64,000 nucleotides of DNA from Candidatus Shapirobacteria bacterium (lineage in GTDB: Bacteria > Patescibacteriota > Microgenomatia > UBA12405): NCBI GenBank assembly GCA_041659325.1, contig JBAZYN010000001.1, positions 67,342 to 131,341 on the forward strand. The letters run 5' to 3'. Position numbers and translations under genes: made by a program. The notes beneath the pieces were generated by a model that saw nothing but the letters and a program-made list of their open reading frames with translations, ran no database searches and was not told the origin of the DNA. This document shows, piece by piece, positions 94 to 49,683 of this stretch; position 1 is the stretch's first letter, and each line of letters opens with the position of its first letter.

Positions 94-816
94 ATGAAAA
101 ATAAAAAGATATTAATAATCGCTTCGATCGTGACATTAGGTGCCATCAGCATTGCTACCGGTTGGAGGTTGTATCAAACCAGAAAAGATTCTCAGGCCCC
201 TATTGAGCCAAAAGCCACTAGTCCGCAATGTACCCTGGAGTTTACTGTTTCTCCGCCCACTCCAACTCCCACCGTAACCTCTGGTCCCTCTCCAACTCCG
301 GGTCCGACCTCTACCAATACTCCCACGCCCACCAAAACTCCAATCCCTACCAAAACCCCAATCCCTACCAAGACTCCTACTCCCACCATAACTCCTACCG
401 GTACCCTCACCCCAACCATGACTCCTTCCGCAACGGCTATTCCCACCCCAACAGAAACATCTTCTCCAACCCCAACCATGACACTCACCAATACTCCCAC
501 TCCCACCAAAACCCCGGTTCCCACCGCCACACCGGTTCTTGTTTGCGGATCACCCTGTGGTGAAAATATAACCGGAATCTGCCCAGAGAACCATTCCTGT
601 TATAACGGCAAATGTGTTCTCCTTGCCTGTATGGAAGAATCCGCTGAATGCAATACCAGTAATTGTAAAATTATTCCTACCTTCGCCCCGACTGATACCA
701 AAAGCCCGACTCCAACCAGAATAACACTTCCCAATGCTGGCGTTGATTTCCCTGTCAAAGCTCTCGGACTTGTCGGTGTTATCATAACACTGTTAGGATT
801 TTTGATATTACTTTAA
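94..816 (+). CDS. Secreted or anchored protein. N-terminal signal/TM, long Pro/Thr-rich linker ([14 protein letters not shown]...), Cys-rich C-terminal module, C-terminal LPNAG motif plus hydrophobic tail.
   Basis: ORF track. AGGAGG at 74-79 upstream of the ATG. Composition read directly (about 40% P+T over residues 45-160, ten Cys in residues 150-195). Confidence 0.6.
331..384 (+). repeat. Three tandem copies of an 18-bp unit (accaaaactccaatccct / accaaaaccccaatccct / accaagactcctactccc) encoding [18 protein letters not shown], inside a longer PT-codon low-complexity tract of roughly 250-530.
   Basis: Read directly in the sequence. Confidence 0.7.
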
Positions 817-3310: not shown

Positions 3311-4985
3311 AAATTATCTCATTGTAATTATTTGCGTTGCTGGATTATTGAGGCTTGTTGGCCTAAATTGGGATCAGGGCAACCATCTTCACCCCGACGA
3401 ACGAATGATCACTATGGTTGTTGGCCGGATTAGCATGCCTCCGATAGATCCGGTACTAAAAATTGGGCAAAAACTAAATATATTATTTTCTCCGGACTCA
3501 ACCTTAAACCCCAAATTTTTTGCCTACGGATCCTTTCCCATATATCTTCTCAAATTTTCTGCCCACCTTCTTACCCCGATATTTCCCAAAATCTCTTCTT
3601 ATGATCAAATTAATTTACTCGGAAGAGCAATCTCTGCCGTCTTTGATACTCTTGTCATTATTTTCATTTATCGTCTTGGCCTTTTGATTTTCAAGAGTTC
3701 CTCAAAAAGTCTCTTCGCCTCGGTAATTTACGGCTTATCTATCTTTCCTATCCAGTTGTCCCATTTCTATGCAGTCGACACGATTTTATCTTTTTTTATC
3801 CTATTTACCATTTATCAACTAATTTGTTACTTCCGGCAACAACGATTTATAAATCTTTTGTTCGCCGGCGTTGGTTTCGGATTATCTTTAGCCACCAAAG
3901 TAAGTGCCATCGTCTTGGTAGTACCTTTTGCCACCTGCTTTACCCTATTGACCTGGCGTTTTATTAACTCCAAAAAAATACTAAAAACACTAAAATTACT
4001 TCTATTAGTCTCCGCCATTACGATTATTGTTTTTTTTATTTTCCAACCATTTGCCTTAACGGATTTTTCTACTTTTAAACGACAAATACTCGAGCAACAG
4101 GCCATGACCAAAGATGCCTTTGTCTTCCCTTATACACTTCAATATGTCAACACAATTCCTTATCTTTATCCGCTAAAAAATATCTTTCTTTGGGGTCTTG
4201 GCCCGGTAATTGGCCTTATGGCTACAATTGGTTTTTTTGCCCTAATAAAAAAATTATCTCGAGGGCTATTTTCTCCCGGCAGCCAAAATTCACCAGGAGC
4301 AACCATTATTTTATTTTCCTTTTTTATAACGTATTTCATAATAGTAGGTGGTTTTGCCGTAAAATGGATGCGTTATTGTCTGCCGCTGTATCCGATATTT
4401 GCCTTATTTGCTGCCAACACTATCGGAGATATAAAGTCAAAATACCTAAAGACTACTATTTTATTAATCCATTTGTGTCTTGTTTTTGCCTTTATGAGTA
4501 TTTATCAAGTTCCCAATACCCGGGTTACCGCCACCAAATGGATTAATAAAAACATTTCTCCAGGGTCAACTATTCTAGTGGAACACTGGGACGATCCACT
4601 GCCTTTAGGTTATCTCAATAAAAATATTACTCAACTTTCTTTACCGCTTTACGATTCCGATCTTGAACCCAACAAGTGGGTTAACATCAACAAAATGTTA
4701 GATACCGGTGACTACATTATTCTTTCGAGTAATCGTCTCTATACTCCCCTCCAAAAACTAACCAATTGTGATCAACTTCCTCCCGGTCGGTGTTATTCCA
4801 AAACAGCTACATATTATCAAGACCTTTTTTCCGGGAAACTTGGATATACCAAAGTAGCTGAGTTTACCAATTACCCCAAACTTTTTGGAATTAGCATCGA
4901 CGATCAGTCAGCCGACGAATCTTTTACTGTCTACGACCACCCAAAAGTAATGATTTATAAGAATACTCATGTTCAAAAAAATTAA
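3294..4985 (+). CDS. Polytopic membrane glycosyltransferase, GT-C fold (GT39/PMT/ArnT-like), paralog 2.
   Basis: Same architecture as 1736-3310 (LHPDE loop motif, multi-TM, C-terminal domain). Its start overlaps the upstream stop. Confidence 0.55.
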   Translation: MAKLHKNYLIVIICVAGLLRLVGLNWDQGNHLHPDERMITMVVGRISMPPIDPVLKIGQKLNILFSPDSTLNPKFFAYGSFPIYLLKFSAHLLTPIFPKISSYDQINLLGRAISAVFDTLVIIFIYRLGLLIFKSSSKSLFASVIYGLSIFPIQLSHFYAVDTILSFFILFTIYQLICYFRQQRFINLLFAGVGFGLSLATKVSAIVLVVPFATCFTLLTWRFINSKKILKTLKLLLLVSAITIIVFFIFQPFALTDFSTFKRQILEQQAMTKDAFVFPYTLQYVNTIPYLYPLKNIFLWGLGPVIGLMATIGFFALIKKLSRGLFSPGSQNSPGATIILFSFFITYFIIVGGFAVKWMRYCLPLYPIFALFAANTIGDIKSKYLKTTILLIHLCLVFAFMSIYQVPNTRVTATKWINKNISPGSTILVEHWDDPLPLGYLNKNITQLSLPLYDSDLEPNKWVNINKMLDTGDYIILSSNRLYTPLQKLTNCDQLPPGRCYSKTATYYQDLFSGKLGYTKVAEFTNYPKLFGISIDDQSADESFTVYDHPKVMIYKNTHVQKN

Positions 4986-6480
4986 TCCTCTTGTTGGAAT
5001 TTTGATATTTTTTTTGGTAGTTTGTTTCTATCGTCTGGACTCAATACCCGGAGAATGGTTTGGTGATGTTTCCATTGTCAATAGTTATGTTTCTCAAATT
5101 ATTACCGGGCAGTGGCCATTTACTTTTATCACTAGTCAAGGACCTCTCTACTACTATCTTATCGCTCCCATCATTTATATCTTCGGGGTTAGCTACCTGA
5201 ATTATAAAATATGCTCTGTACTTACCGGATTAATGGGCATAGTATTCGTTTATCTGTTTGTTAAAACTCTAAGCAATAGGTCAGCCGGATTAATTGCCGC
5301 CTTCATTACCGCCTCTTCTTTTTGGTACTTAGTTTGGTGCCGCCTAGGCTACAATATTATCGGCCCTGTTCTTACTGCCATCACTTTATTTTTGTTTTTT
5401 AATTATCAAAAAAATAAAAATACGAAATTTCTTTACTCGGTGCTATTTATTAGTTGCCTTGGTCTTATCAATTATGCCGGAACATTCTTCCTCCCACTGG
5501 CAATTATTACCATTTTCTTAGTAAATGCCATCTTTATATCAAAAACGAGCATTCGTTCAATTTTTACTACACTTATTATTTTTTTTATTGCTCTCGTTCC
5601 CATGGTTATCATACTTAGTCAGAACTTAGATAGTCTATCCCCTGGTTATATGGGTGAAAAATTATTTCAAACTAAACAATACTCAACCTCGGAAAATATT
5701 AATCGTCTGGCCACCAACTTACGACGCACCTTAGGTATGTTTCATTTTGAAGGTGACGTTGTTTTTCGTTGGAATGTCTCAAAAAGTCCTCATCTGGACA
5801 TTGTAAGCGGAATTTTTTTAATCATTGGCTTAATTTGTTCGTTAATTAAAAAAAAAGCTACAACTTTATTATTACTAATAAGCGCCTTTATTTTAATTTT
5901 ACCTTCAATATATCCAGGCCACCCTTCGGCGGAAGTGCCCAGTAGCCCCAGGACCCAGGCTATTATTCCCATAATAATATACTTAACTAGTTTCGGAGTT
6001 TATTACTTGACGGAATTTACAAAAAAGTTATATCCGTCAGCTACAAAAATATTACTTTTCCTCATTCTTTCTAGTATTTCATTTTTAAACTTAACCAAAT
6101 ACTTTATCGACTACCCGAAGGGTTTGCCTAACGACAATACTCCATTTGGAAAAATCATCGCCCAAGATATTGACAAGTTGCCTCCCGGAGTCGATGTATA
6201 TCTTGCCGATATCGGTTGGGGTGATTGGGAACAGCCGGAACCAGACGGAATTTTTTATGCCATAAACAACAATAAAGGAAGAGAAAATATTCTCTCGGGT
6301 ACAATAAGTGATTGTAGTCAAATTAATCAATTAAAAAATAGTTATATAATTTCAAATCCACTTAGTGAAACAAAATTAGAAATATTCCAACAATGTTTTT
6401 CTCAAATCGAAACAGAAACACACACCGTAAACAATCAACTTGTTTATAAAAGCCTGTTTATAAAATCAAATCCTGACTAA
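4969..6480 (+). CDS. Polytopic membrane protein, probably a third GT-C-type glycosyltransferase.
   Basis: Ten or more hydrophobic segments, YYYLIAP-type N-terminal segment, soluble C-terminal domain; 4-nt overlap with the upstream gene. Confidence 0.45.
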   Translation: MFKKINPLVGILIFFLVVCFYRLDSIPGEWFGDVSIVNSYVSQIITGQWPFTFITSQGPLYYYLIAPIIYIFGVSYLNYKICSVLTGLMGIVFVYLFVKTLSNRSAGLIAAFITASSFWYLVWCRLGYNIIGPVLTAITLFLFFNYQKNKNTKFLYSVLFISCLGLINYAGTFFLPLAIITIFLVNAIFISKTSIRSIFTTLIIFFIALVPMVIILSQNLDSLSPGYMGEKLFQTKQYSTSENINRLATNLRRTLGMFHFEGDVVFRWNVSKSPHLDIVSGIFLIIGLICSLIKKKATTLLLLISAFILILPSIYPGHPSAEVPSSPRTQAIIPIIIYLTSFGVYYLTEFTKKLYPSATKILLFLILSSISFLNLTKYFIDYPKGLPNDNTPFGKIIAQDIDKLPPGVDVYLADIGWGDWEQPEPDGIFYAINNNKGRENILSGTISDCSQINQLKNSYIISNPLSETKLEIFQQCFSQIETETHTVNNQLVYKSLFIKSNPD

Positions 6481-12181: not shown

Positions 12182-13219
12182 ATGATCACCAGAATTTTAT
12201 ACAATCAGGAAAAAGATCAATACAACAAACTGGTTAAACATCCGGTCCAAAGTTGGGAATGGGGAGACTTCCAAATTTCTCAAGGCCACAAGGTATATAG
12301 GTTGGGGGTTTTTGACAATCAAAAAATGATCTCTGCTTATAGTATCAGTTTTCACACTATTCCCAAAACTCTATTCTCAGTCGGAACAGTCCTGAAAGGA
12401 CCAAAAATAGACCAAGAAATGGTTAACAATCTTAAAAAAATCGCCACTGATGAAAATGCCATATTTGTAAAACTTGAACCGGATTTTATCCAAAAAAAAT
12501 TCACCAGCGAGGGCAGTGAAACAGTCGCCTCTATGGACACTCGCTTCCCAAATCTTGTTGTATCCCCAAAGGTAGCTTTCTATCCGTATAGCTTCATGGT
12601 TGATCTGACAAAAACTGAGGATGCGCTCTTATATCAAATGCACTCCAAAACCCGATACAATATAAAAATTGCCAATAGACATGGTGTAAAGATAGAAGAA
12701 AACAGTACTGATGCCGGATTTGAAACATATCTTGAGTTGCTTTTTGACACCACCGCCCGCCAAGGGTTTTATCTTCATAGCCAACAGTATCATCGGGATC
12801 TTTGGAAACTTCTCAAACCAACCGGAATCCCTCACATATTTTTGGCTTCATATCAGGGGGAGACATTAAGTGCTTTTATGCTTTTTATCTACAAGGATAA
12901 TTTGTTTTATCCCTACGGCGCTTCTCTTGATCAATACCGGGAGGTCATGGCCCCGACACTACTGATGTGGGAATCAATAAAGTTTGGAAAAAGTATGGGT
13001 CTAAAAAATTTTGACATGTGGGGAAGTCTTGGCCCGGACGCAAAAGAGGGAGATCAGGGGTTTGGTTTCCATCGGTTCAAACAGGGCTTTGGCGGTCAAC
13101 TCGTTCAATTTGCCGGAACTTATGATTTAGTTATCAATCAGCCTCTATATACTATTTATAATCTTGCCGACAAATATCGGTGGAAATTTCTCCGTTTAAA
13201 ATCAAAGTTTATAAGATAA
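12182..13219 (+). CDS. FemAB/FemX-family peptidoglycan interpeptide-bridge aminoacyltransferase.
   Basis: N-terminal HPVQSWEWGDF... and C-terminal HRFKQGFGGQLVQFAGTYDLVIN are typical of the FemABX family. Confidence 0.65.
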   Translation: MITRILYNQEKDQYNKLVKHPVQSWEWGDFQISQGHKVYRLGVFDNQKMISAYSISFHTIPKTLFSVGTVLKGPKIDQEMVNNLKKIATDENAIFVKLEPDFIQKKFTSEGSETVASMDTRFPNLVVSPKVAFYPYSFMVDLTKTEDALLYQMHSKTRYNIKIANRHGVKIEENSTDAGFETYLELLFDTTARQGFYLHSQQYHRDLWKLLKPTGIPHIFLASYQGETLSAFMLFIYKDNLFYPYGASLDQYREVMAPTLLMWESIKFGKSMGLKNFDMWGSLGPDAKEGDQGFGFHRFKQGFGGQLVQFAGTYDLVINQPLYTIYNLADKYRWKFLRLKSKFIR

Positions 13220-13227
13220 AATACACC

Positions 13228-13557
13228 ATGTCTTCCGTAAAGATCACTGTAGATACTCTCGACCATATCGCTCACTTGGCCCGTATTAGTTTGACCGACA
13301 CAGAGAGGGAACTGTTTTTGCCCCAGTTGTCTTCCATTCTTGAATATGTGGAAGTTCTTCAAAAAGTTGACACTTCAAATATCAATGCTTCCTCCCAAAT
13401 CACCAACCTAAAAAACATTACCCGACCAGATGAGGTTAAGCCTTCACTCTCTCAATCCGAGGTTTTGTCTCAATCACCCAAATCAAACGACGGCTATTTT
13501 CAGGTTCACAACACTATCCCCGCCAAAGGCGGGTCCGCCTCTGGAGGAAAAAAATGA
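13228..13557 (+). CDS. gatC: Glu/Asp-tRNA amidotransferase subunit C.
   Basis: VKITVDTLDHIAHLARISLTDTERELFLPQLSSILEYVEVLQKVDT. The ORF track starts upstream at 13180, but the ATG at 13228 fits the family N-terminus. Confidence 0.8.
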   Translation: MSSVKITVDTLDHIAHLARISLTDTERELFLPQLSSILEYVEVLQKVDTSNINASSQITNLKNITRPDEVKPSLSQSEVLSQSPKSNDGYFQVHNTIPAKGGSASGGKK

Positions 13558-15023
13558 CTCCTGATTTAACCGCACTCACTATTCCGGAAATTAAGAAACT
13601 TTTAACTGAAAAACAAGTCACGGCTGGTGAAATTGTATCTACCTATCTCCAAAGGATTAAGACCTTCAATCCCAAAATTAACGCTTTCATCACTGTCACT
13701 GAAAAAGAAGCCACGGATCAGGCAAAAATCATTGATGAAAAAATAAGTAAAAATCAGTCGGTTGGTAAGTTAGCCGGTGCTGTCATGGCAGTAAAAGATA
13801 TATATTTGACAAAGGGTGTAGAGACGACTGCCGGATCAAAAATCTTAAAGGGTTATATCCCCCAATACTCCTCCACGATTTATCAAAAATTGATAAATGA
13901 AGATGCCATATTAATTGGTAAAACAAACACCGATTGTTTTGCTTTTGGAGGATCAACCGAAAACTCGGGTTATTTCACCACAAAAAATCCCTGGAACTTA
14001 TCACTTGTCCCCGGTGGTTCCTCGGGCGGTTCATCCGCCGCCCAGGCCGCTTCCCTTTGTACTTTCGCTCTTGGTACCGATACCGGAGGTTCTATTCGAC
14101 AACCTGCATCCCTATGTGGTGTTACCGGTATTAAGCCTACATATGGTCGCAATTCTCGCTATGGAATTACCTCCATGGCCGCGTCATTTGATTGTCCTGG
14201 AGCATTTGGTAAAAATGTTGAAGACGTAGCCGCGGTTACCCGAATTACCGCCGGACTGGATTCTTATGATGCCACTACCAGCCCCGACCCGGTGCCCGAT
14301 TATGTTAATAAACTTTCAAATTTTTCCCTAAAAGGACTTCGGATTGGTCTACCACGAGAGTATTTCTCCGAAAGCCTTGATCCTGAGGTTAAGGAAAACG
14401 TTTTAGGTGCCGCCAAAACTTTTGAGTCAAACGGCGCCAAAATTATCGACATTTCTTTACCAAGTACTTCACTGGGTTTAGCTGTTTACTACGTCCTGAT
14501 CCCTTCAGAAATTTCTTCAAATATGGCCCGTTATGACGGTATCCGTTTCGGTCAATCCAAAAAAGACACCACTGACCTTTTATCGCACTACATGGAAACC
14601 CGGGGCGAGTTTATGGAGCCGGAATTAAAAAGAAGAATACTAATCGGCACCTACGCCTTATCAGCCGGATATTTCGATGCCTATTACACTAAAGCTTCCA
14701 AGGTTCGGACATTAATAAAAAACGAGTTTATTGATAATTTTTCAAAAGTTGATGTTATCCTGGCTCCGGTTTCTCCTACCACCGCCTGGCCAATCGGTCA
14801 AAAGGTCAACCACCCTCTTCAGATGTATTTAGCGGATGTCTACACCTGTTGCATCAACGTTGCCGGTGTTCCTGCATTGGCCCTTCCGTGCGGTTTTGAT
14901 TCCCAAAATCTGCCAATTGGTTTTCAGCTGATTGGCAACTATTTCGAAGAATCAAAATTATTTTCCATCGGCCATCAATATCAGCAATTAACCGATTATC
15001 ATTTAAAAACACCAAATTTATAA
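13554..15023 (+). CDS. gatA: Glu/Asp-tRNA amidotransferase subunit A (amidase signature).
   Basis: Amidase signature GGSSGGSSAAQAAS...GTDTGGSIRQPAS; ATGA overlap with gatC. Confidence 0.9.
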   Translation: MTPDLTALTIPEIKKLLTEKQVTAGEIVSTYLQRIKTFNPKINAFITVTEKEATDQAKIIDEKISKNQSVGKLAGAVMAVKDIYLTKGVETTAGSKILKGYIPQYSSTIYQKLINEDAILIGKTNTDCFAFGGSTENSGYFTTKNPWNLSLVPGGSSGGSSAAQAASLCTFALGTDTGGSIRQPASLCGVTGIKPTYGRNSRYGITSMAASFDCPGAFGKNVEDVAAVTRITAGLDSYDATTSPDPVPDYVNKLSNFSLKGLRIGLPREYFSESLDPEVKENVLGAAKTFESNGAKIIDISLPSTSLGLAVYYVLIPSEISSNMARYDGIRFGQSKKDTTDLLSHYMETRGEFMEPELKRRILIGTYALSAGYFDAYYTKASKVRTLIKNEFIDNFSKVDVILAPVSPTTAWPIGQKVNHPLQMYLADVYTCCINVAGVPALALPCGFDSQNLPIGFQLIGNYFEESKLFSIGHQYQQLTDYHLKTPNL

Positions 15024-15132
15024 AACGTCATTGCGAGGGGTCTATCCCCGCGGCAATCATAACAAGATCGCGGAGCCTGCCCCGAGAAACGAGAAATCGT
15101 TTGTCTCGCCGCATTGACAATTTACACCAAAA
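15024..15132 (+). other. Structured 109-nt gatA-gatB intergenic spacer with two imperfect hairpins (ttgcgagggg..ccccgcggcaa and gagaaacga..tcgtttgtctc).
   Basis: Inverted repeats read by eye; no T-tract after them. Confidence 0.3.
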
Positions 15133-16566
15133 ATGAAAACTACCCCCATAATCGGCCTTGAAGCCCACGTCGAACTAAAAACTAAATCAAAAATGTTTTG
15201 TGGCTGCGATGACAACCATTTTCATGTTGACCCCAATACTCACACTTGTCCGGTATGTCTTGGTCTCCCGGGGGCTCTCCCGGTTCCAAATGGAACCGCC
15301 ATCGATTGGTGTCTTAAGCTCGGCCTGGCTCTTGGCTGCACCGTCAACGAACATTCTTTTTTTGAGCGAAAAAATTACTTCTATCCGGATCTTTCAAAGG
15401 GTTATCAAATCTCCCAATACTTACAGCCTTTTACTGTAAAAGGTACCCTAAATTTAGACGGCCACGAAATCAGAATCAACCGGGCTCACCTGGAAGAAGA
15501 CACCGGCAAGTCAGTTCATGTAAACGGAACCACCTTGCTCGATTTCAATCGCTCAGGCGTTCCGTTGGTTGAGGTTGTCTCCGAGCCGGACATAACTTCC
15601 CCCCAAGAAGCCAAAAAATACTTAGTTAAATTGCAGCAAATTATTCGGTATTTAGGAATCTCCGATGCGGACATTGAAAAGGGGAGTATGCGCTGCGAGC
15701 CAACCGTCAATTTGAAAATCGAAGAAAATAGCGAGACTTACTATACCCCTCTTGTAGAAATTAAAAACGTCGCCTCCTTAACCGGCGTTCAGACTGCCAT
15801 TCAGTTTGAAATTGATCGTCAACAAAAACAATTTTTTGAAGATCATATTGTAAAGAATCCTTCTAACAAGACCACTAGAGGTTGGGACGCTGATAAAAAC
15901 CAAACTTTTTTGCAACGCGAAAAAGAGGGTTCTTCCGACTATCGTTATTTTCCTGAGCCCGATATTCCGCCCTTTGAGTTTACCGATGAAGAAATTGAAA
16001 AAATCAAATCCACCATTCCCGAACTTCCGGATCAAAAAGTTATCAAATACAAAAGCTACGGTCTTTCCGATTATGACGCCAATTTAATATCTCAGGATTC
16101 ACTTATGGCCTCGGCCTACGAAAAAGCAGTTGGACAAAACCCACTGTCGGAATTTGCCAAATTTGTTGCCAACCTATTTTCCGGATCCATTAAAACTCTT
16201 TTAAACGATAGTCAAACAGAAATCGATATTCAGCAAATTAACCCTGACCACTTTCAAAAATTATTTGACAAAAAATCTGAATTATCTTCAAACTCTATTA
16301 AGCAATTAATACTTGATAGTTATCAAACCGGTCAAGACCCGCTCTTTGCCGCCCAAAAACAAAATCTTTTTCAGGTTTCCGATACCGGAAAAATTGAAGA
16401 ATTAGCCAAAAAAGTTTTGGCCGACAACCCAAAAGCAGTTGAGGATTATAAAAAAAATCCCAACAGTATTGGTTTTCTCGTTGGCCAGTTAATGAAACTA
16501 TCTATGGGCTCCGCCAATCCCCAAATGGCAAAAGAAATTTTAGAAAAATTACTTAATAGTGACTGA
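15133..16566 (+). CDS. gatB: Glu/Asp-tRNA amidotransferase subunit B.
   Basis: Full-length GatB/GatE catalytic and tail domains (HVELKTKSKMFCGC..., C-terminal LVGQLMKLSMGSANPQ). Confidence 0.9.
   Translation: MKTTPIIGLEAHVELKTKSKMFCGCDDNHFHVDPNTHTCPVCLGLPGALPVPNGTAIDWCLKLGLALGCTVNEHSFFERKNYFYPDLSKGYQISQYLQPFTVKGTLNLDGHEIRINRAHLEEDTGKSVHVNGTTLLDFNRSGVPLVEVVSEPDITSPQEAKKYLVKLQQIIRYLGISDADIEKGSMRCEPTVNLKIEENSETYYTPLVEIKNVASLTGVQTAIQFEIDRQQKQFFEDHIVKNPSNKTTRGWDADKNQTFLQREKEGSSDYRYFPEPDIPPFEFTDEEIEKIKSTIPELPDQKVIKYKSYGLSDYDANLISQDSLMASAYEKAVGQNPLSEFAKFVANLFSGSIKTLLNDSQTEIDIQQINPDHFQKLFDKKSELSSNSIKQLILDSYQTGQDPLFAAQKQNLFQVSDTGKIEELAKKVLADNPKAVEDYKKNPNSIGFLVGQLMKLSMGSANPQMAKEILEKLLNSD
16534..16554 (+). 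repeat. Direct repeat copy 1 (gaaattttagaaaaattactt), inside the last codons of gatB.
   Basis: Exact 21/21 identity with 17824-17844; contains the palindrome aatttt-aga-aaaatt. Confidence 0.85.
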
Positions 16567-17815
16567 AGCTCTTGTCTATCGACCAAATGTTCCCGTCGGT
16601 GACCGCGGAAGCGGGAGACTACAGGGTCAATATCACGATCAGTTAAAAGCTTCACGTCAGTTAACGCCGGAAGAATGGTTAGGAGTTTTTCAAGATCGAA
16701 CCATTATTACCATCCCCGGAGAAAGCCACACCTTTGCTATTATTCTCCGTCCGGAGTTTGATGTTCCCCCGGGGTGCGATCATATGATCGTTGCTGAACC
16801 TCACTATCATCCCGGATCACCTGATTTTTATGAGCTGTCAGTACTCGCCCCTGCAGATGCACTAACAATGCTAAGAACCACCTTCGCTGTTCTTCATTCT
16901 TACAGGCAACAAGGATGTGATCATGTCAGAGCCGTTTTGAATTGTTCATCCTATGACAGTGGAGCAATTTTCAGGGGCACCGTTGTTGACAAACAAAGAT
17001 TGCCACAATCACTGATGGTCCCTCATTTCAAAACCGGTGGGTTAAAACTTAGAGAAATTCCACAATCTACTATCCTGGAAAGTGAAACCCCTTATCTTAA
17101 CCGGCCGTTACAATCAGAACTAAATCAAATTGTTAAGTATTTATCACAAAAACTGGATATATCGGTCAGCGACGGTAGTCTTCCTGCGATTGCCGTGTCA
17201 TGCGGGTCTGACCCCGGCAAACTTATTTCACTATATCAACAATTGCACCGCACAATGTTCGAAATATCTTCCTACTCGATTGGTTACGAGGGTATTCATC
17301 TGGAATCGCATGCCACCGGGACTAACCACCAAAGAACGCCAACTGTTACCGATAGTACAGGGAGGGTGTCAAACGATGATTCGGTTAAGTCTATAACTGA
17401 ATGGCTAGGCAGAGAATCGAGTCGACCTGGCACACTCGTCTCCCAAAGTGTTTTCAGAGACGATTTAACCCTTTCAGCGCTAATGGCACAATATCTCACT
17501 GCCCAGAGAGCCTATCTGGAAGCTCATCCCGCTCAAACTATGATTTTTGGTCCATCTTACAGCATGCTTATTCATGGTGTCACGAACGAGCCAGTGACAG
17601 CCCATTTTGTTCCGGCCGAGTTTGTTCCCAAAGGAGCAAACACCATCGTCAATGAATTTCCCCAGGAGACAAGACGCGCACTAACTCCAGCCGAAGTCGA
17701 AGCAATTAGAATAGGTAACGGTAAGCTTTATGATTATCTTCAAGGACATACTCCTTTTCATCCTATGTTTAATCTTGATTTCGACCTACAAAAATATGCT
17801 GACAGTTTCAACTGA
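16559..17815 (+). CDS. Hypothetical 418-aa protein of foreign composition. Contains an HYH (His-hydrophobic-His) motif, so possibly a HIT/GalT-like or HUH-type fold; function unknown.
   Basis: Long ORF with a GTG start overlapping the gatB stop. About 3% Lys against 8-10% in neighbouring proteins, and rich in H/Q/R/P/G. Confidence 0.5.
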   Translation: MTEALVYRPNVPVGDRGSGRLQGQYHDQLKASRQLTPEEWLGVFQDRTIITIPGESHTFAIILRPEFDVPPGCDHMIVAEPHYHPGSPDFYELSVLAPADALTMLRTTFAVLHSYRQQGCDHVRAVLNCSSYDSGAIFRGTVVDKQRLPQSLMVPHFKTGGLKLREIPQSTILESETPYLNRPLQSELNQIVKYLSQKLDISVSDGSLPAIAVSCGSDPGKLISLYQQLHRTMFEISSYSIGYEGIHLESHATGTNHQRTPTVTDSTGRVSNDDSVKSITEWLGRESSRPGTLVSQSVFRDDLTLSALMAQYLTAQRAYLEAHPAQTMIFGPSYSMLIHGVTNEPVTAHFVPAEFVPKGANTIVNEFPQETRRALTPAEVEAIRIGNGKLYDYLQGHTPFHPMFNLDFDLQKYADSFN

Positions 17816-17823
17816 TAAAAACG

Positions 17824-17844
17824 GAAATTTTAGAAAAATTACTT
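17824..17844 (+). repeat. Direct repeat copy 2 (gaaattttagaaaaattactt), non-coding, just after the stop of the 418-aa ORF.
   Basis: Exact 21/21 identity with 16534-16554. Confidence 0.85.
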
Positions 17845-18159
17845 TCCTGAACCTCTGACCCTCCAAGCCACCAAGTAGTCTCTTCCCTCAGGTGTTCTTA
17901 CCGATCCGGTACCACCAGTTTGTGTTCCTTTTATTGCATCATTTTGCAAAAGATTTGATCCGGGGACGGCAAAACGCACTTGTAGCTCTGTTCCAAATGG
18001 GCTGTTAAATAATGTTTGCTCTTTCGCTCCGATTTTTAATTCGACTGTACTACTTTGACCACCTTCGATTACCCCAGAAGCGCATCGTTCGACAACTAGG
18101 CCATCAGCCCCAACTTTAACTTCAAACGACGCATAAAATACATCTACTCTCCTATCCAT
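17839..18159 (-). CDS. Small (106 aa) Gly/Val-rich hypothetical protein, convergent with the 418-aa ORF.
   Basis: ORF track. On the minus strand TGcTATAAT (plus coordinates 18166-18174) lies 6 nt upstream of the ATG, which suggests a leaderless transcript. Confidence 0.3.
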   Translation of the reverse strand: MDRRVDVFYASFEVKVGADGLVVERCASGVIEGGQSSTVELKIGAKEQTLFNSPFGTELQVRFAVPGSNLLQNDAIKGTQTGGTGSVRTPEGRDYLVAWRVRGSGK

Positions 18160-18288
18160 GAGCGCATTATAGCATGATAATATAACTTTATTGTGTTACT
18201 TTCACCCTCCTCTCGCAGATACCCGTCTTTGCCAAAATGGCCTGTGGGTAAAACCCGGCAACCCTTCCTCATCGCCCCTCGCCTCTGA

Positions 18289-21200
18289 GTGTCGTTGAAC
18301 CGATGCTACAATTTATCAGTGGATAAAATTAAGACTAATTTTCAGACCGAATACGATCGTCTGAATCCCGAGCAGAAAACCGCCGTCGATACCATTGAAG
18401 GGCCGGTCATGGTTATTGCCGGCGCCGGCACCGGCAAAACTCAAACTATTGCCCTCCGCATCGGCAACATTCTCCAAAAAACCCAAACCCCGCCTTCTTC
18501 GATTTTATGTTTAACTTTCACCGAATCGGCCGCTATAAATATGCGGCAACGATTGATTGCCTTAATCGGCGCTTCGGCATACAGTATCCGCGTTTCCACC
18601 TTCCACTCCTTTTGCAATTCGGTCATCAGGGAACATCCGGAACGCTTTTTATTTTCCAAAAAAGAATCCACCTCTCTTGATGATGTCAAGCGGATTCAAA
18701 TTATCCGTACCCTTATAGATCAGCTCCCCGCCGGAAGCGCTCTCACTAGTTTCAATGCTCCATATTACTGGCAGCGCGATATTATTTCCTCCCTTCAGGA
18801 TCTCAAAAAAGAAAACGTTACCCCGGAAAATTTTTCAGAATTGATCAAATACGCCGCAGATTTTGTTTCAAATTCAAATGGTGCCTACGATCAACTTTCA
18901 AAAATCAGAGCCACCGAAAAAGCCTCCGGCGAGTTGGCGGGTATAGTCGAGAAACTGGCAGAAAATGTCCACATTCATCCTCTCTACCAAAGCCGGGTTA
19001 ATTTATATCTGACCCTCTTTAAGCAAGGGGACACCTCTCTCTCCGATCTCAAAAAGAATATTCGTGATTTGATAGAAAAAACCAAAAATAACTTACCCAG
19101 ACTCAACGATCTTTTAACTATTTACCGCGGTTATCAACAGGCCCTCCTCGACCAGAATCTTTTCGACTACGACGACATGATTCTCTGGGTTTTAGCCGCT
19201 TTCAGAAACAATCAGGAATTATTGGCCGAATATCAGGAAAAATATCAATACCTTTTAGTCGATGAATTTCAGGACACAAATTCATCTCAATTTGAGATTT
19301 TAAATCTGTTAAGCAGCCACCAATCAGAACCAAATTTATTTGTCGTCGGTGACGACGATCAGTCCATCTACCGTTTCCAGGGTGCTTCGGTTGAAAACAT
19401 CTATAATTTTTATCAAAGATATCAGGCCGGTATTAGAGTCATTGTATTAAAAAACAATTACCGTAGTCACAAACTGATACTGGAATCATCCGATTGTGTT
19501 ATAAAAAACAATTTAGTTCGCATCACTCAATATATAAAAAACTTAGACAAGTCCCTCGTCTCCACAAAAACATTCGATCCCGACCCGATCAATTTGGGAA
19601 TTTATACCAGCCCCGAAGACGAAGTTATAAATGTAGTCCAAAAGATCAAATCACTTATCGGTGATGGGGTAAGTCCAAAAGAAATTGCCGTACTTTTTCG
19701 TAACAACGCCGATATTCAGGATTTTTTGCCGGCTTTTGACCAACAAGGTGTAAAGTACCTTCTTTCAGATAACATAGATATTTTAAAAAGTAGGGAAATT
19801 CAGCAGTTGATTGATCTCATGAAGTTTATTGTCAATCCCCACGACGATCACACTCTTGGTCAAATTTTATCCTTTAACTTTTTGAAAATCGACCCCTTTG
19901 ATCTTTACCGCTTATACCACTACACTGGCAGACACGATCTGTCCGTCTCCGAATTTATACTCGACAAAAACAATCTCTTGTCGCTTAAGATAAAGCCTTA
20001 TACCATCCGTCAACTCAGAAATTTCGTTATTCGGGTTGCCAAAACCAGGCAGAAATCCGGCAATCTGCCTCTCGACCACCTATTTAACGAAATTATCCGT
20101 CGTTTCCGTCTTTTAAAATACATTCTCGATCAACGTCGTGTTGACTTGCTTAAGCAGTTAAACGTCCTTTTTAGTTTAATAAAATCCCGTCTTCAAAATG
20201 AGTCCACTTATACTCTTGAACAATTCGTTGAAGAGCTTGATCTGCTGAGAGAAAACCAGATAAATCTTAATTCCCAGCCGCTTCTGGTCGACATCGATAA
20301 AAGTGTCCGTTTAATGACTGTTCACAAAGCCAAGGGGCTGGAGTTTGAACATGTATTTCTTGTGAAAGTAGTAAGTGGTAAATGGGACAGTTCTTCCTCC
20401 CGAAATTTAATTAAATTACCCCTTGGAATAGTCAAGACTGATATTACCCAAGTTACCGGTGACCAAGATCTCGAAGAAGACCGTCGTCTTTTTTATGTTG
20501 CTCTCACCCGGGCTAAAAAACAAATTTACATCAGCCTTTCCCGGCGCACCGAAACCGGTCGTGAGCAGCTGCCATCAGTGTTTGTCAGCGAAATCAACCC
20601 CTCTCTTTTAGAAAAATTTGAAAGCACCGCCGAGAGTGAAGCTCATAGTCTTCGCTCTCAATATTCAGTATCTTTTCCCAAGCTTAAGTCAATTAATCTC
20701 TCTGATTATCTAAGAAATTATCTTTCCACCTCATATCGTTTTAATATCACTCACCTAAACTCTTATCTAAATTGCCCTCTCTGTTTCTTTTTCAAAACAA
20801 TACTTCGCCTACCTTCTCCCAAAACCAGGAGTCTCTCGATGGGTACTTCCGTCCATGGCAGCCTTGCCTATTTGTTTCAAGTCTACAAAGAAGATAACAG
20901 GCTAATCTCCTTGGATAAATTTAAAGAAATTTATAAAAATAATTTGCAAAGAGAACATCTACCGAAAAAGGACCATCGGCAAGTTCTTGCCGCCGGCCTG
21001 CAGATTTTAACCGATTATTATAATCATTATCAGACCGAGTTTAACGGCAACTGTTTTACCGAACACGATTTCCGTTTTCATGGTATAAGATTAAACGGTA
21101 TTCCGATTACCGGAAAAATCGACAAAATTGACATTATCGATAAAAATCACGTTAACGTGGTTGACTTCAAAACCGGTAAACCTGATAATAAATATGGAGA

Positions 21201-47317: not shown

Positions 47318-48427
47318 CTAGCCTTTAGTATTTATTAGCTTATTCAATACGTCCCACCTTCTTTTTTTCTCCGCTTGCGGAATATCATTAGGGTAAAGAT
47401 CCGCCGACACCGTCCCTTTCCGGGGGGAATACTTATTAATATACGCTATCTCAAAACCTACCTTCTCACATACACTTTTAGTATTTTCAAAAGCCCTCTC
47501 GCTTTCTCCCGGGAAACCCACGATTATATCCGTACTAAACCGAACATCCGCCACCTTCTCCCTTATCTTTGAAACCAATTTCAAATACTCATCGGCCGTA
47601 TAACCCCGGTTCATTTTTGTCAAAATTTCGTCATCTCCCGACTGCAAAGGTAAGTGAAGCAACCTGTCAATATTTTTATTCTTTGCTATTACCTCAATCA
47701 GCTTGTCATCAAAATCCCATGGGTTACTACTAATAAATGAAATCTTGTCGAGCGGTTTCTGTGCAATTTCCGACAATAATTTTGGAAACAAAGTCTTTAA
47801 TCTGTTTTTCCCCATCGAAACAAATTTATCTGAATCAATCAGGTCTGTTCCGTATGAATTTACATTTTGACCTATCAGCACAATTTCCCTAAAACCGTTT
47901 GTGATTGATTTATCAACTTCTTCTAAAATTTCCTGAAAATCTCTGGAAATTTCTTTTCCCCGGGAAGTCGGGACAATACAATACGAACAATAATTATTAC
48001 ATCCTGAACTTATGGGGATCAAAGCTGCCCGATTCTTATCTCTCAGCGGCTCTATTTTGTAGCTGATCTTATCAATTGGTAGAAAACCGGAAACCGCCGG
48101 GAAGCGTTTTTGTAAACTCAAAAGGCCCCTACCGTTTTTCTGCCGAACGGACTTCCCGACCAGACAACCGGTCACACATATTTGAATTTTTTTGTCGTAC
48201 TTTTTGTTCCACTTATTTACCAGATTAATCAGCCCATAGGCCCTATTTTCCGCTGATTCTCGGATAATACATGTGTTTATAAGAACTAAATCGGCCTCTT
48301 TCCAATCACTTGCAAGTCTATATCCCTTTTCCCAATAAAAAGCCAAAATCCTCTCCGAGTCCGCACTATTTTGGATACACCCGAAAGTTTTGATAAAAAG
48401 GCGTGGATTTATCGGTCGTTTCACCAA
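47318..48427 (-). CDS. MiaB/RimO-family radical-SAM methylthiotransferase (short form, no TRAM domain).
   Basis: MTTase N-domain FIKTFGCIQN; radical SAM CNNYCSYC. Confidence 0.8.
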   Translation of the reverse strand: MVKRPINPRLFIKTFGCIQNSADSERILAFYWEKGYRLASDWKEADLVLINTCIIRESAENRAYGLINLVNKWNKKYDKKIQICVTGCLVGKSVRQKNGRGLLSLQKRFPAVSGFLPIDKISYKIEPLRDKNRAALIPISSGCNNYCSYCIVPTSRGKEISRDFQEILEEVDKSITNGFREIVLIGQNVNSYGTDLIDSDKFVSMGKNRLKTLFPKLLSEIAQKPLDKISFISSNPWDFDDKLIEVIAKNKNIDRLLHLPLQSGDDEILTKMNRGYTADEYLKLVSKIREKVADVRFSTDIIVGFPGESERAFENTKSVCEKVGFEIAYINKYSPRKGTVSADLYPNDIPQAEKKRRWDVLNKLINTKG

Positions 48428-48436
48428 AAGATTGTA

Positions 48437-48922
48437 TCACATCCTACGGTACAATTTAGCCCCTCCAATCGTGGCTGCCATCGCCAGTCCGATACCCAAA
48501 ACCGTAGGAAATGTGGTCCCCGAGGCCGGTAAAGTAGCCGCCCCCCCACTTTCGACTGAATTCCAGTCTACCCCATCGGTTCCCATGGACAGGCTAAAAC
48601 TAATTGTTGACCCTCCGCTAGCGATTGTCACCTCATGACCTCCGACGGTTAATGGTTCTGTCGGTGTAAATGACCAATTACCGGAGGAGTCAGCATTAAT
48701 CTGCATAGCATTGCCGTCAATCGTCACCACCACTTCAGCTCCGGGAGTAGCCTCACCCTTGAAAGCCGGTTGTGAACCCGTGTACCACCATTTCGTAATT
48801 TGCCTACCCCCCGTTTCCGAATTTCCAATCGATTTAAGATTAAAACCTGATGCAAATGCGTCACTTCTTCCCACAAACACAAAAACCAACAAAATAACAA
48901 TATACCCAAACACCTGTTTCAT
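48437..48922 (-). CDS. Secreted Ig-like (Big-type) surface protein with a C-terminal sorting-signal-like motif: LPASG, hydrophobic stretch, RRM tail.
   Basis: Signal peptide; beta-rich Gly/Thr domain; tripartite C-terminus. Confidence 0.55.
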   Translation of the reverse strand: MKQVFGYIVILLVFVFVGRSDAFASGFNLKSIGNSETGGRQITKWWYTGSQPAFKGEATPGAEVVVTIDGNAMQINADSSGNWSFTPTEPLTVGGHEVTIASGGSTISFSLSMGTDGVDWNSVESGGAATLPASGTTFPTVLGIGLAMAATIGGAKLYRRM

Positions 48923-49038: not shown

Positions 49039-49683
49039 ATGGATTCAAATAATTCCAATCCCAGTCCACAAAACTCCGACGACACAAGCACCAAATATCA
49101 GAATATCCTGGACCAGTATTCCAAACAAATCACCCAAGTACCCGACCTGGATCCAGATTCCGATGATCAAGCAGTTGTAAATCCGGACAGCCTCCTCGGA
49201 GCTTCTCCGATAGAGTCTGTTTCGACACCACCTGCAGCTCTACCCACCGTACCTCATGTTTTGGCAACTCCAGTCCCCCCTCCGCCTTTAGACAAACAAG
49301 CTTCCCCACTGTCTTCAGATCCTGCTTCCGATAGTCCGCCAACCGCCCCCAACTCGCCGGAAAACATCCCTCCGATTACTCCCGCAAAAGAATCAAATTT
49401 TTTTAAAATCCTTTTTTTTGTTTCCCTATTAATATTTTTAGCCGTTACTTCGGCCTTGGCAATTAGTTTTATCAATAGCCCCAAAACCGCTACCGATTCT
49501 ACAAACCCTAGCGTCCCCGCAGACGTCGGACCTACTAGCACTCCCGGGGTTGAATCCTTCTGCTATCTCAACGACAACAAGTACAAATTAAACGAATCTT
49601 TCCCTTCTGCCGATGGCTGCAACACTTGCTCTTGCGGTTTAGACGGGACAATTTCCTGTACCGAAAAAGCCTGTAATGAATAA
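49039..49683 (+). CDS. Pro-rich membrane protein with a central TM segment and a Cys-rich C-terminal module.
   Basis: PPxP-rich N-half, TM ILFFVSLLIFLAVTSALAISFI, C-terminal CYLND...CNTCSCGLDGTISCTEKAC. Confidence 0.5.
   Translation: MDSNNSNPSPQNSDDTSTKYQNILDQYSKQITQVPDLDPDSDDQAVVNPDSLLGASPIESVSTPPAALPTVPHVLATPVPPPPLDKQASPLSSDPASDSPPTAPNSPENIPPITPAKESNFFKILFFVSLLIFLAVTSALAISFINSPKTATDSTNPSVPADVGPTSTPGVESFCYLNDNKYKLNESFPSADGCNTCSCGLDGTISCTEKACNE

Follow-up and report, generated by a model that had tools for sequence, protein, structure and literature searches.

An accessory gene of a near-orphan protein family, probably with a very divergent HIT-like domain, at the 3' end of gatB in a Candidatus Shapirobacteria genome

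What does a gene that starts on the stop codon of gatB in a Candidatus Shapirobacteria genome encode, and did its product bring it there? The window analyzed here (the whole stretch of 64,000 nucleotides (nt), positions 67,342 to 131,341 of the forward strand of contig JBAZYN010000001.1, assembly GCA_041659325.1) contains an open reading frame (ORF) of 418 amino acids (aa) at the end of its gatC-gatA-gatB operon. A first-pass annotation, made from the sequence alone, had described this ORF as cargo of an insert and had noted an HYH triad, which could have been a HIT/GalT-like motif or the HUH motif of the missing mobility enzyme. The answer that we favor, with moderate confidence, is that the ORF encodes a stand-alone accessory HIT-like enzyme of a very rare family, and that it was inserted at gatB as cargo and is not the agent of the insertion. 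The features of the locus are the following.

13180..16566, plus strand: gatC-gatA-gatB operon, with the ORF inserted in its 3' end (Pfam GatC, Amidase, GatB_N, GatB_Yqey)
16534..16554, plus strand: copy 1 of a direct repeat (GAAATTTTAGAAAAATTACTT), inside the gatB 3' end, encoding EILEKLL (repeat finder, pattern search)
16559..16566, plus strand: 8 nt shared by the ORF start (GTGACTGA) and the gatB stop (sequence)
16559..17815, plus strand: 418-aa ORF of a near-orphan protein family, GTG start, TGA stop (ORF list)
17824..17850, plus strand: copy 2 of the direct repeat (17824-17844) followed by TCC TGA, the displaced gatB 3' end, EILEKLLS* (repeat finder, pattern search)

The gene and its insertion site

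The ORF is a real gene. Its product is recorded at NCBI as MFA5827820.1, 'hypothetical protein WC841_00455 [Candidatus Shapirobacteria bacterium]', and its GTG start overlaps with the gatB stop (TGA, 16564-16566), as the first-pass annotation had stated; the overlap is 8 nt. A homologue of 415 aa, 59% identical, was found in a second locus (L001), where it starts with ATG at the same position and shows the same start/stop overlap, as ATGACTGA. Comparison of the two copies gave an identity of 0.75 at the second codon position, 0.64 at the first, and 0.41 at the third, a pattern that indicates purifying selection. Because of the overlap with the gatB stop, the ORF is probably cotranscribed and translationally coupled with gatB; scans for promoters and terminators gave results at or below shuffle expectation.

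The composition of the protein is unusual. Of the 45 window ORFs with 150 aa or more, it had the most extreme amino-acid composition, with the lowest content of Lys, Ile, and Asn (10.8%, against a background of about 21%) and the highest content of His, Gln, Arg, Pro, and Gly (28.7%), as had been claimed. The raised GC content was also found (45.3%; window 41.0%, flanking genes about 40.5%), but it is hardly remarkable, several native genes reaching 0.45-0.49 and gatB up to 0.495 in windows of 200 nt. The GC content at third codon positions (GC3) was ordinary (0.37), and synonymous codon usage (z = -1.8) was within the native spread. Thus, the foreign character noted earlier is confined to the amino acids and does not extend to mutational bias. 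The compositions of the window protein (P0001) and of its L001 homologue (P0002) resemble that of a third family member (P0004) encoded on a contig with 50% GC, while the GC3 of the two genes matches that of their own hosts. These values are compatible with descent from a GC-richer donor long ago and later amelioration of the synonymous sites.

Evidence for an insertion was obtained from the last codons of gatB. The 21-nt sequence of the direct repeat had two exact matches, whereas none of 100 shuffles contained two. Copy 2 begins 8 nt past the ORF stop and, since the copies are spaced by 1290 nt, or 430 codons, lies in the gatB frame. In three relatives that lack the ORF (L009, L010, and L089), GatB ends in ...EKLLK*, one residue after EKLL; L009 is also a Ca. 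Shapirobacteria (GatB identity 73%), and GatB of L010 is 68% identical. In the two loci that carry the ORF, GatB ends in EKLLNSD* (window) and EKLLKND* (L001), and in both the ORF start overlaps the stop. The gatB gene of the window is intact and uses the new three-residue tail NSD*. From the short ends of the ORF-less relatives, the new tails of the carriers, and the old tail lying downstream, the sequence comparison indicates that the ORF is inserted into the last gatB codons, having brought a replacement tail and displaced the native one.

The slot that holds the ORF is variable. L089 keeps the same downstream AddA-like gene as the window, and the slot is thus bounded by gatCAB and by a gene for an AddA-like helicase-nuclease. 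A metagenome scan with a gatB-tail pattern returned one locus only, L089, with its empty site, and when 76 gatB loci were scanned strictly for duplicated tails, only the window was returned. No Rfam family and no tRNA was found in or near the slot. The perfect 21-nt repeat, the displaced tail, the three empty sites, and the patchy distribution bear out the idea of cargo, and we found neither a housekeeping family nor lineage-wide synteny beside gatB, as would be expected of ordinary gene content.

We infer that the ORF is cargo and not the agent of its insertion. The 1290-bp unit contains no recombinase, its only gene being the 418-aa ORF, which has no recombinase signature, and no integrase or recombinase was found among the compositional outliers and near neighbors, the rest of the window not having been scanned. 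Two routes explain the insertion best. Integration could have been of the Campbell type, in which a circle carrying the ORF and a gatB tail would recombine via the conserved gatB 3' sequence (GGCTCCGCCAATCCCCAAATGGCAAAAGAAATTTTAGAAAAATTACT); the empty-site junction would then have been ...GGCAAAAGAAATTTTAGAAAAATTACTTTCCTGAACC and the circle junction ...CAACTGATAAAAACGGAAATTTTAGAAAAATTACTTAATAGTGACTGAAGC. Alternatively, the unit may have entered by homology-facilitated illegitimate recombination anchored in gatB. Either route would use host or trans-acting functions.

The genomic island of E. coli for microcin H47 is flanked by direct repeats, has no recombinase of its own, and is mobilized in trans (PMC3191183). 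Like this island and like islands that restore the 3' end of their target, the window unit has short direct repeats at both ends and supplies the 3' end of its target, the native end being displaced downstream; no integrase or recombinase is encoded inside, and empty sites exist in relatives. Unlike these islands, it is only 1290 bp long, with one gene and 4 nt plus 8 nt of noncoding DNA, its target is the protein-coding gatB and not a tRNA gene, and it is represented by one clean example and a diverged scar in L010. In the literature, we found no known gatB attachment site and no link between HIT proteins and GatCAB.

A bolder proposal would be that the unit is a minimal integrase-less cassette of Shapirobacteria-like bacteria of the candidate phyla radiation (CPR), which integrates as a circle with its own gatB tail and whose attachment site is the conserved last 20-47 nt of gatB. 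A circle of this kind would explain the perfect repeat of the window, the identical left junction of L001, and the tail-duplication scar of L010, though we consider the proposal very unlikely. In its extreme version, the HIT-like protein itself may perform the DNA transaction via a covalent His-phosphate, which would make it a new class of recombinase.

History of the locus

The divergence values weigh against a simple insertion history. The window and L001 are about as diverged in the ORF (59% aa identity, 0.41 at third codon positions) as in gatB (66% and 0.46), which fits a long coinheritance, and after a long coinheritance a perfect noncoding copy of 21 nt is hard to explain as a neutral relic. 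In support of the insertion, the left gatB/ORF junction is homologous in the window and L001, but the right junction is not. In GatB quartets with an outgroup, the window was nearer to the three ORF-less relatives than to L001 in 477 of 500 cases, which makes the ORF-bearing lineages paraphyletic and also speaks for an insertion. At least two events are needed with this placement, either a gain and a loss or two acquisitions; the topology is that of one gene and is possibly affected by long-branch attraction.

We also weighed the possibility of an ordinary gene of the lineage, inherited vertically, which would have entered once, long ago, in the ancestor of the window and L001, and later have been deleted in the clade of L009, L010, and L089, the repeat being a constrained relic and not a sign of recent mobility. 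The junction and overlap shared with L001, the similar divergence of ORF and gatB, and the host-like GC3 and codon usage are in its favor, as are the unusual conservation of the gatB 3' DNA between the window and L009 and the state of a tail copy in L010 (both described below). Yet a neutral copy of 21 nt should not stay perfect while synonymous sites saturate, a search of L001 revealed no displaced gatB tail, the quartets call for at least two events anyway, and the amino-acid composition suggests a GC-richer origin. We regard this history as possible but doubtful. A further model that we considered is an old insertion in which the repeat would have been kept by some constraint.

The last 47 nt of gatB are identical in the window (16508-16554; 41% GC) and in L009 (5369-5415; 31.5% GC), including the GC-ending codons GGC, TCC, GCC, and CCC. 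In the last 20 gatB codons, the same codon was used at 14 of the 16 identical residues, compared with a background of about 50%; this excess is marginal, since the first 20 codons gave a similar value (14/17).

L010 contains a gatB tail duplication of its own, consisting of two 45-nt copies (5497-5541 and 5575-5619) that are 73% identical, 78 nt apart, and in frame. The noncoding downstream copy (...LAKEILEKLLNS*) is nearer to the clade consensus than the coding copy. It overlaps the stop of a convergent HAD-like gene, just as the displaced tail of the window overlaps the stop of a 106-aa ORF. L010 also contains, twice within 1 kb (4612-4633 and 5558-5581), a GC-rich perfect palindrome, ACCTGCCTGCCGGCAGGCAGGT, in a genome of 31.5% GC. 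One copy is in frame in gatB, where it adds LPAGRQV, and the other lies between the two gatB tails; the palindrome looks like a small palindromic insertion element. Together, the 47-nt identity and the L010 duplication hint at DNA-level constraint or at recombination at the gatB 3' end, and the second, independent tail duplication hints that this end is a recombination hotspot. The locus records the gain of a gene by a streamlined CPR genome through insertion at the end of an essential gene, with replacement of its tail and the old tail left behind as a direct repeat.

The protein family, its HIT-like domain, and its possible activity

The ORF protein belongs to a very rare, unnamed, near-orphan family. 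Searches of Pfam, NCBIfam, PHROG, PADLOC, and PDB sequences gave no significant match for the protein or for the profile of its family, including the HIT, GalP_UDP_transf, and Rep/HUH models to which the first-pass annotation had pointed. A search of 5.8 billion protein clusters returned only the window protein and its 59%-identical relative, P0002. An exhaustive HMMER search of 1.84 billion representatives with a profile of these two sequences brought the family to 8 proteins in all, of 403-604 aa and 20-33% identical to the query, and P0009 was the only addition from a second, word-index search for homologues that used the family profile. The family thus comprises 9 members among about 15 billion proteins. 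Relatives were not found in phage, plasmid, and viral-contig collections. In the alignment of the 9 members, 14 residues are invariant (P12, D74, P88, G119, N128, Q150, H156, R182, G331, P332, K358, G359, R373, and E379), H156 being the only histidine among them. Position 158 is Lys in 7 of the 9 members, His in P0008 (H-I-H), and Gln in P0009 (H-A-Q). H156 is the predicted nucleophile and is paired with N128; the codons of N128 and H156 are at 16940-16942 and 17024-17026, respectively. The parts of the protein to which we refer below are located as follows.

16691..17053, plus strand: predicted N-terminal HIT-like domain, aa ~45-165 (AlphaFold2 model, hhalign, Foldseek)
16802..16810, plus strand: HYH triad, aa 82-84, in a variable loop after strand 3, not a functional motif (not conserved; predicted local distance difference test (pLDDT) score of ~74 in the block)
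17006..17041, plus strand: family signature Q150-S151-x4-H156-x-K158-x-x-G161 (H156, Q150, and N128 invariant in 9/9)
17531..17758, plus strand: C-terminal conserved domain, aa ~325-400, with invariant G331, P332, K358, G359, R373, and E379 (alignment; pLDDT 84-97)

Only the window and L001 genes follow gatB. The other members have the following neighbors.

P0003: between a GNAT gene and an MFS transporter gene
P0004 (L004 9007-12823): after a RimK-type ATP-grasp gene, abutting a convergent amidase gene (GatA-type)
P0005 (L005 5268-6742): adjoining a convergent NTP_transferase gene and a GATase (class-I) gene
P0007 (L007 7416-9218): beside two His_Phos_1 phosphatase genes, 4 nt after one of them
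P0008: beside a Wzy_C gene

No integrase or transposase was found near these five genes, and a search of the other members for flanking repeats gave nothing convincing. The P0003 gene is bracketed by an imperfect 17-nt direct repeat (14/17; L003 4082-4098 and 5389-5405), with one copy in the end of the GNAT gene and the other in the start of the MFS gene; since chance alone would give about two such pairs per 2 kb, it is probably noise. A pair of MNT/HepT toxin-antitoxin genes lies near the family member in L005. The neighbors of the five genes suggest a role in small-molecule or nucleotide metabolism, though no partner is conserved. The members in L004, L005, and L007 stand beside genes of glutamate/glutamine amide or nucleotide chemistry, which may be a weak theme shared with gatB or a coincidence.

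The HYH triad had raised the possibility that the protein is an HUH endonuclease (a Rep protein, a relaxase, or a Y1 transposase) that mobilizes the insert, with HYH 82-84 binding a metal and a downstream Tyr cutting DNA. The triad is indeed present, in the peptide EPHYHPGSPDFYELS (aa 80-94), and no gene other than the ORF lies between the two copies of the 21-nt repeat. HYH is the only HxH of the protein, which contains 17 His; of shuffles with the same composition, 5.6% contained an H-aromatic-H triad and 22.5% an H-hydrophobic-H triad. At the same position, the eight relatives read NKS (in the 59%-identical protein), QDN, HDP, KNK, KNP, TD-, a gap, and KNE, so that none has the triad. The conserved Tyr that the HUH model needs downstream of HYH was sought in the nine-member alignment, and no invariant column was found; the best columns (7-8 of 9) lie in the middle and C-terminal helices. 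Pfam Rep, relaxase, and Y1_Tnp models did not match the family even at E < 10. The sole HUH structure among the Foldseek matches was TrwC (2cdm), with a probability of 0.05 and a TM-score of 0.10. Elsewhere in the family, the genes occur in single copy, have metabolic surroundings, and lack flanking repeats. Thus, the only likeness to Rep proteins, TrwC-type relaxases, and Y1 transposases is an unconserved H-aromatic-H tripeptide in the window protein; the family has no conserved HUH, catalytic Tyr, or fold similarity, and its homologues are not in the context of mobile elements. Because the triad is unconserved and at chance level, and because neither an invariant Tyr nor evidence of an HUH fold was found, we rejected the HUH and mobility-enzyme reading, as far as sequence analysis allows, and consider it extremely improbable.

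The other reading of the first-pass annotation, a HIT/GalT-like protein, led to a different result, with a different histidine. An AlphaFold2 model made with a two-sequence alignment was unusable (pLDDT 34), but with nine sequences the pLDDT was 84.4 and the predicted TM-score 0.88. The N-terminal domain of this model consists of strands 48-53, 57-63, and 74-81, a short helix, a long helix (98-117), a strand (122-129), an inserted hairpin, and a last strand (156-162). The fold of HINT1 and other HIT proteins has the same order of three strands, a helix, and two strands. A Foldseek search of the PDB gave weak matches, the best of which (E 0.03-1) cluster in HIT proteins. Seven were DcpS chains (E 0.3-1.8, 174-182 aligned columns, 17-19% identity), one was human HINT1 (TM-score 0.49, normalized to the target), and one was chain L1 of 8ro1, which we take, by inference only, to be CWF19L1, a protein that carries a HIT-clan CwfJ domain. 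Searching the viral library with Foldseek gave only noise. CWF19L1 is a component of the 8ro1 structure (PMC11958768). For Lpg0439 (5l0l), no function is described.

Further evidence was obtained by profile-profile comparison. With HINT1 and a CPR HIT protein as seeds, a homologue search listed vertebrate HINT1 orthologues only, from which no diverse profile was obtained. We therefore built a HIT profile from HINT1 and FHIT (100% identical to PDB 3tw2_A and 1fhi_A), six HIT segments from PDB alignments, and the HIT ORF of L060. With hhalign, the family matched this profile with a score of 27.7 (P 0.0033) over 106 columns, family residues 48-169 falling on HIT columns 13-131, and the N-terminal domain alone gave a P of 0.00088. 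Reversed-profile controls scored 12.2 and 12.7, 60 column shuffles had a mean of 10.5 and a maximum of 16.3, and 14 real unrelated families scored 10-20, with short alignments. Against the single HINT1 sequence, the match lacked significance, although the motif was in the correct register. In the alignment, H156 falls on His112 of HINT1, which is the position of the nucleophile in HIT enzymes, K158 on His114, Q150-S151 on Q106-S107, and N128 on the Asn of strand 4. A His or a Gln at the last position of the motif distinguishes the HxHxH and HxHxQ branches of the HIT superfamily.

The resemblance to the HIT superfamily (the Hint, Fhit, DcpS, aprataxin, CwfJ, and GalT branches of the Pfam clan HIT) thus includes the predicted core of three strands, a helix, and two strands, the Asn of strand 4, the Q-S/T followed by a conserved His on the last strand and then by a Gly, the H or Q found two residues after this His in two members, and a match that spans the domain. 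The family differs from the superfamily in that only one of the three histidines is conserved, the third position being usually Lys; in an inserted hairpin (about 15 residues) that separates strand 4 from the motif; and, for the window protein, in its length of 418 aa, its large helical middle part, and a conserved C-terminal domain that is unrelated. We concluded that the N-terminal domain probably has a very divergent HIT-superfamily-like fold, as judged from the model and the profile match. The HIT half of the earlier proposal therefore survives through the invariant His156 (Q-S-x4-H-x-[K/H/Q]), while its basis in HYH 82-84 and its GalT half do not.

This assignment must be weighed against the following observations. 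Foldseek found nothing in the PDB at E <= 0.001, with TM-scores of 0.2-0.5. The hhalign probability of the HIT match was only 10-23%, and the register of strands 1-3 differed between runs. On the same hhalign scale, HIT and GalT matched each other with a P of 1e-7, compared with 0.003 for the family, which is thus much more remote than the recognized branches. No Pfam HIT-clan model (HIT, DcpS_C, GalP_UDP_transf, CwfJ_C_1, etc.) matched any of the 9 members at E < 1. The full His triad is missing, the middle His (H156) being invariant and the first position being V, I, F, A, H, Q, L, K, or I. In the C-terminal half, hhalign detected no significant HIT similarity and no internal repeat, and no fold could be assigned. 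An interpretation of this half as a second HIT repeat or as an internal duplication was rejected on these grounds.

It could therefore be asked whether the HIT likeness is superficial, the protein having a new fold or being a noncatalytic binding protein, such as an accessory defense or stress factor in a variable hotspot. The lack of a significant structural match and of a profile match and the missing triad agree with this, as do the position of the gene in a variable slot between conserved genes and the MNT/HepT pair near the L005 member. On the other hand, three lines of evidence, weak but independent, agree on HIT and point to one histidine, the null scores were clearly lower, PADLOC gave no match, and the polar residues that are invariant (N, Q, S/T, H, K, R, and E) resemble an active site. 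We consider a superficial likeness unlikely.

Another possibility was that the protein is a true GalT-type (branch III) hexose-1-phosphate nucleotidyltransferase or nucleotide-sugar phosphorylase, made of two HIT-like halves. As in GalT, an active-site-like His ends the first half; the motif of P0009 is H-x-Q, an NTP_transferase gene adjoins the L005 member, and the best local hhalign match was an 'LT..E + helix' element of the second half of GalT. However, the comparison with E. coli and human GalT gave a P of 0.15 over 28 columns, which we judged no better than the reversed controls (0.6-0.7). There was no match to Pfam GalP_UDP_transf or GalP_UDP_tr_C, no GalT structure among the Foldseek matches, and no HPHGQ motif or Cys/His pattern of a Zn site, and the C-terminal half has no HIT signal. 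Membership in GalT was rejected because of the hhalign result, the lack of a Pfam match, and the C-terminal half without HIT signal; we consider it very unlikely.

By analogy with HIT enzymes, the product of the ORF is probably an accessory, nucleotide-handling enzyme. His156 would stand in place of the nucleophilic His, Asn128 and Gln150-Ser151 in place of the residues that hold the ribose and the alpha-phosphate, and Lys158 (His or Gln in one member each) in place of the last His (HIT) or Gln (GalT branch). His156 would then likely attack the alpha-phosphate of a nucleotide-linked substrate (NMP-X, NMP being a nucleoside monophosphate). A covalent NMP-enzyme intermediate would form, and its NMP would then be transferred to water, phosphate, or another acceptor. 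Binding of the leaving group or of the acceptor is probably the role of the C-terminal domain, which is conserved and basic (K358, R373, and E379).

If the HIT assignment is true, the family would be a new, very sparsely sampled branch of the HIT superfamily, characterized by an H-x-K motif with a single histidine and by a C-terminal domain that is conserved but unrelated. The family occurs in CPR and other uncultured bacteria, no curated model detects it, and it would then be a target for structure determination and enzymology and the seed of a new protein family. Neither such a branch nor the history of the locus overturns current understanding.

Other features of the window

The gene that converges on the displaced gatB tail is the following.

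17839..18159, minus strand: 106-aa convergent ORF of uncertain status, whose stop codon is the complement of the TTA Leu codon in the displaced gatB tail

This ORF has atypical codon usage (z = -2.75), and its product contains much G, V, and R but little K, I, and N. No family match was found in Pfam and other libraries, and no homologue in 90 loci. The ORF fills the place taken in L009, L010, and L089 by a small ORF and a gene for a HAD-like hydrolase. The annotated GTG start of the AddA-like helicase-nuclease ORF at 18289 (region 18289-18330) is probably too far upstream; the orthologue in L089 starts with MTNFQDEYQKL, which aligns to about 18328 of the window. With the later start, about 160 nt (18160-18320) would be intergenic, a stretch that is unusually GC-rich and had no Rfam match.

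Compositional outliers were also found elsewhere. On the minus strand at 47318-48922, a radical-SAM MiaB/RimO-like gene (369 aa) and a gene for an Ig-like Big_13 protein (161 aa) had codon usage z-scores of -7.1 and -5.9. They are among the very few minus-strand genes and lie in a region of strong negative GC skew, and their atypical codons probably reflect strand asymmetry and not a foreign origin. A 240-aa ORF at 94-816 (plus strand) is an outlier in composition (GC 0.483, Kullback-Leibler divergence (KL) 0.335) and had no Pfam match. A 214-aa outlier ORF at 49039-49683 (plus strand; KL 0.22) had no match beyond a weak one at its C terminus, Pacifastin_I-like and thus unusual in a bacterium.

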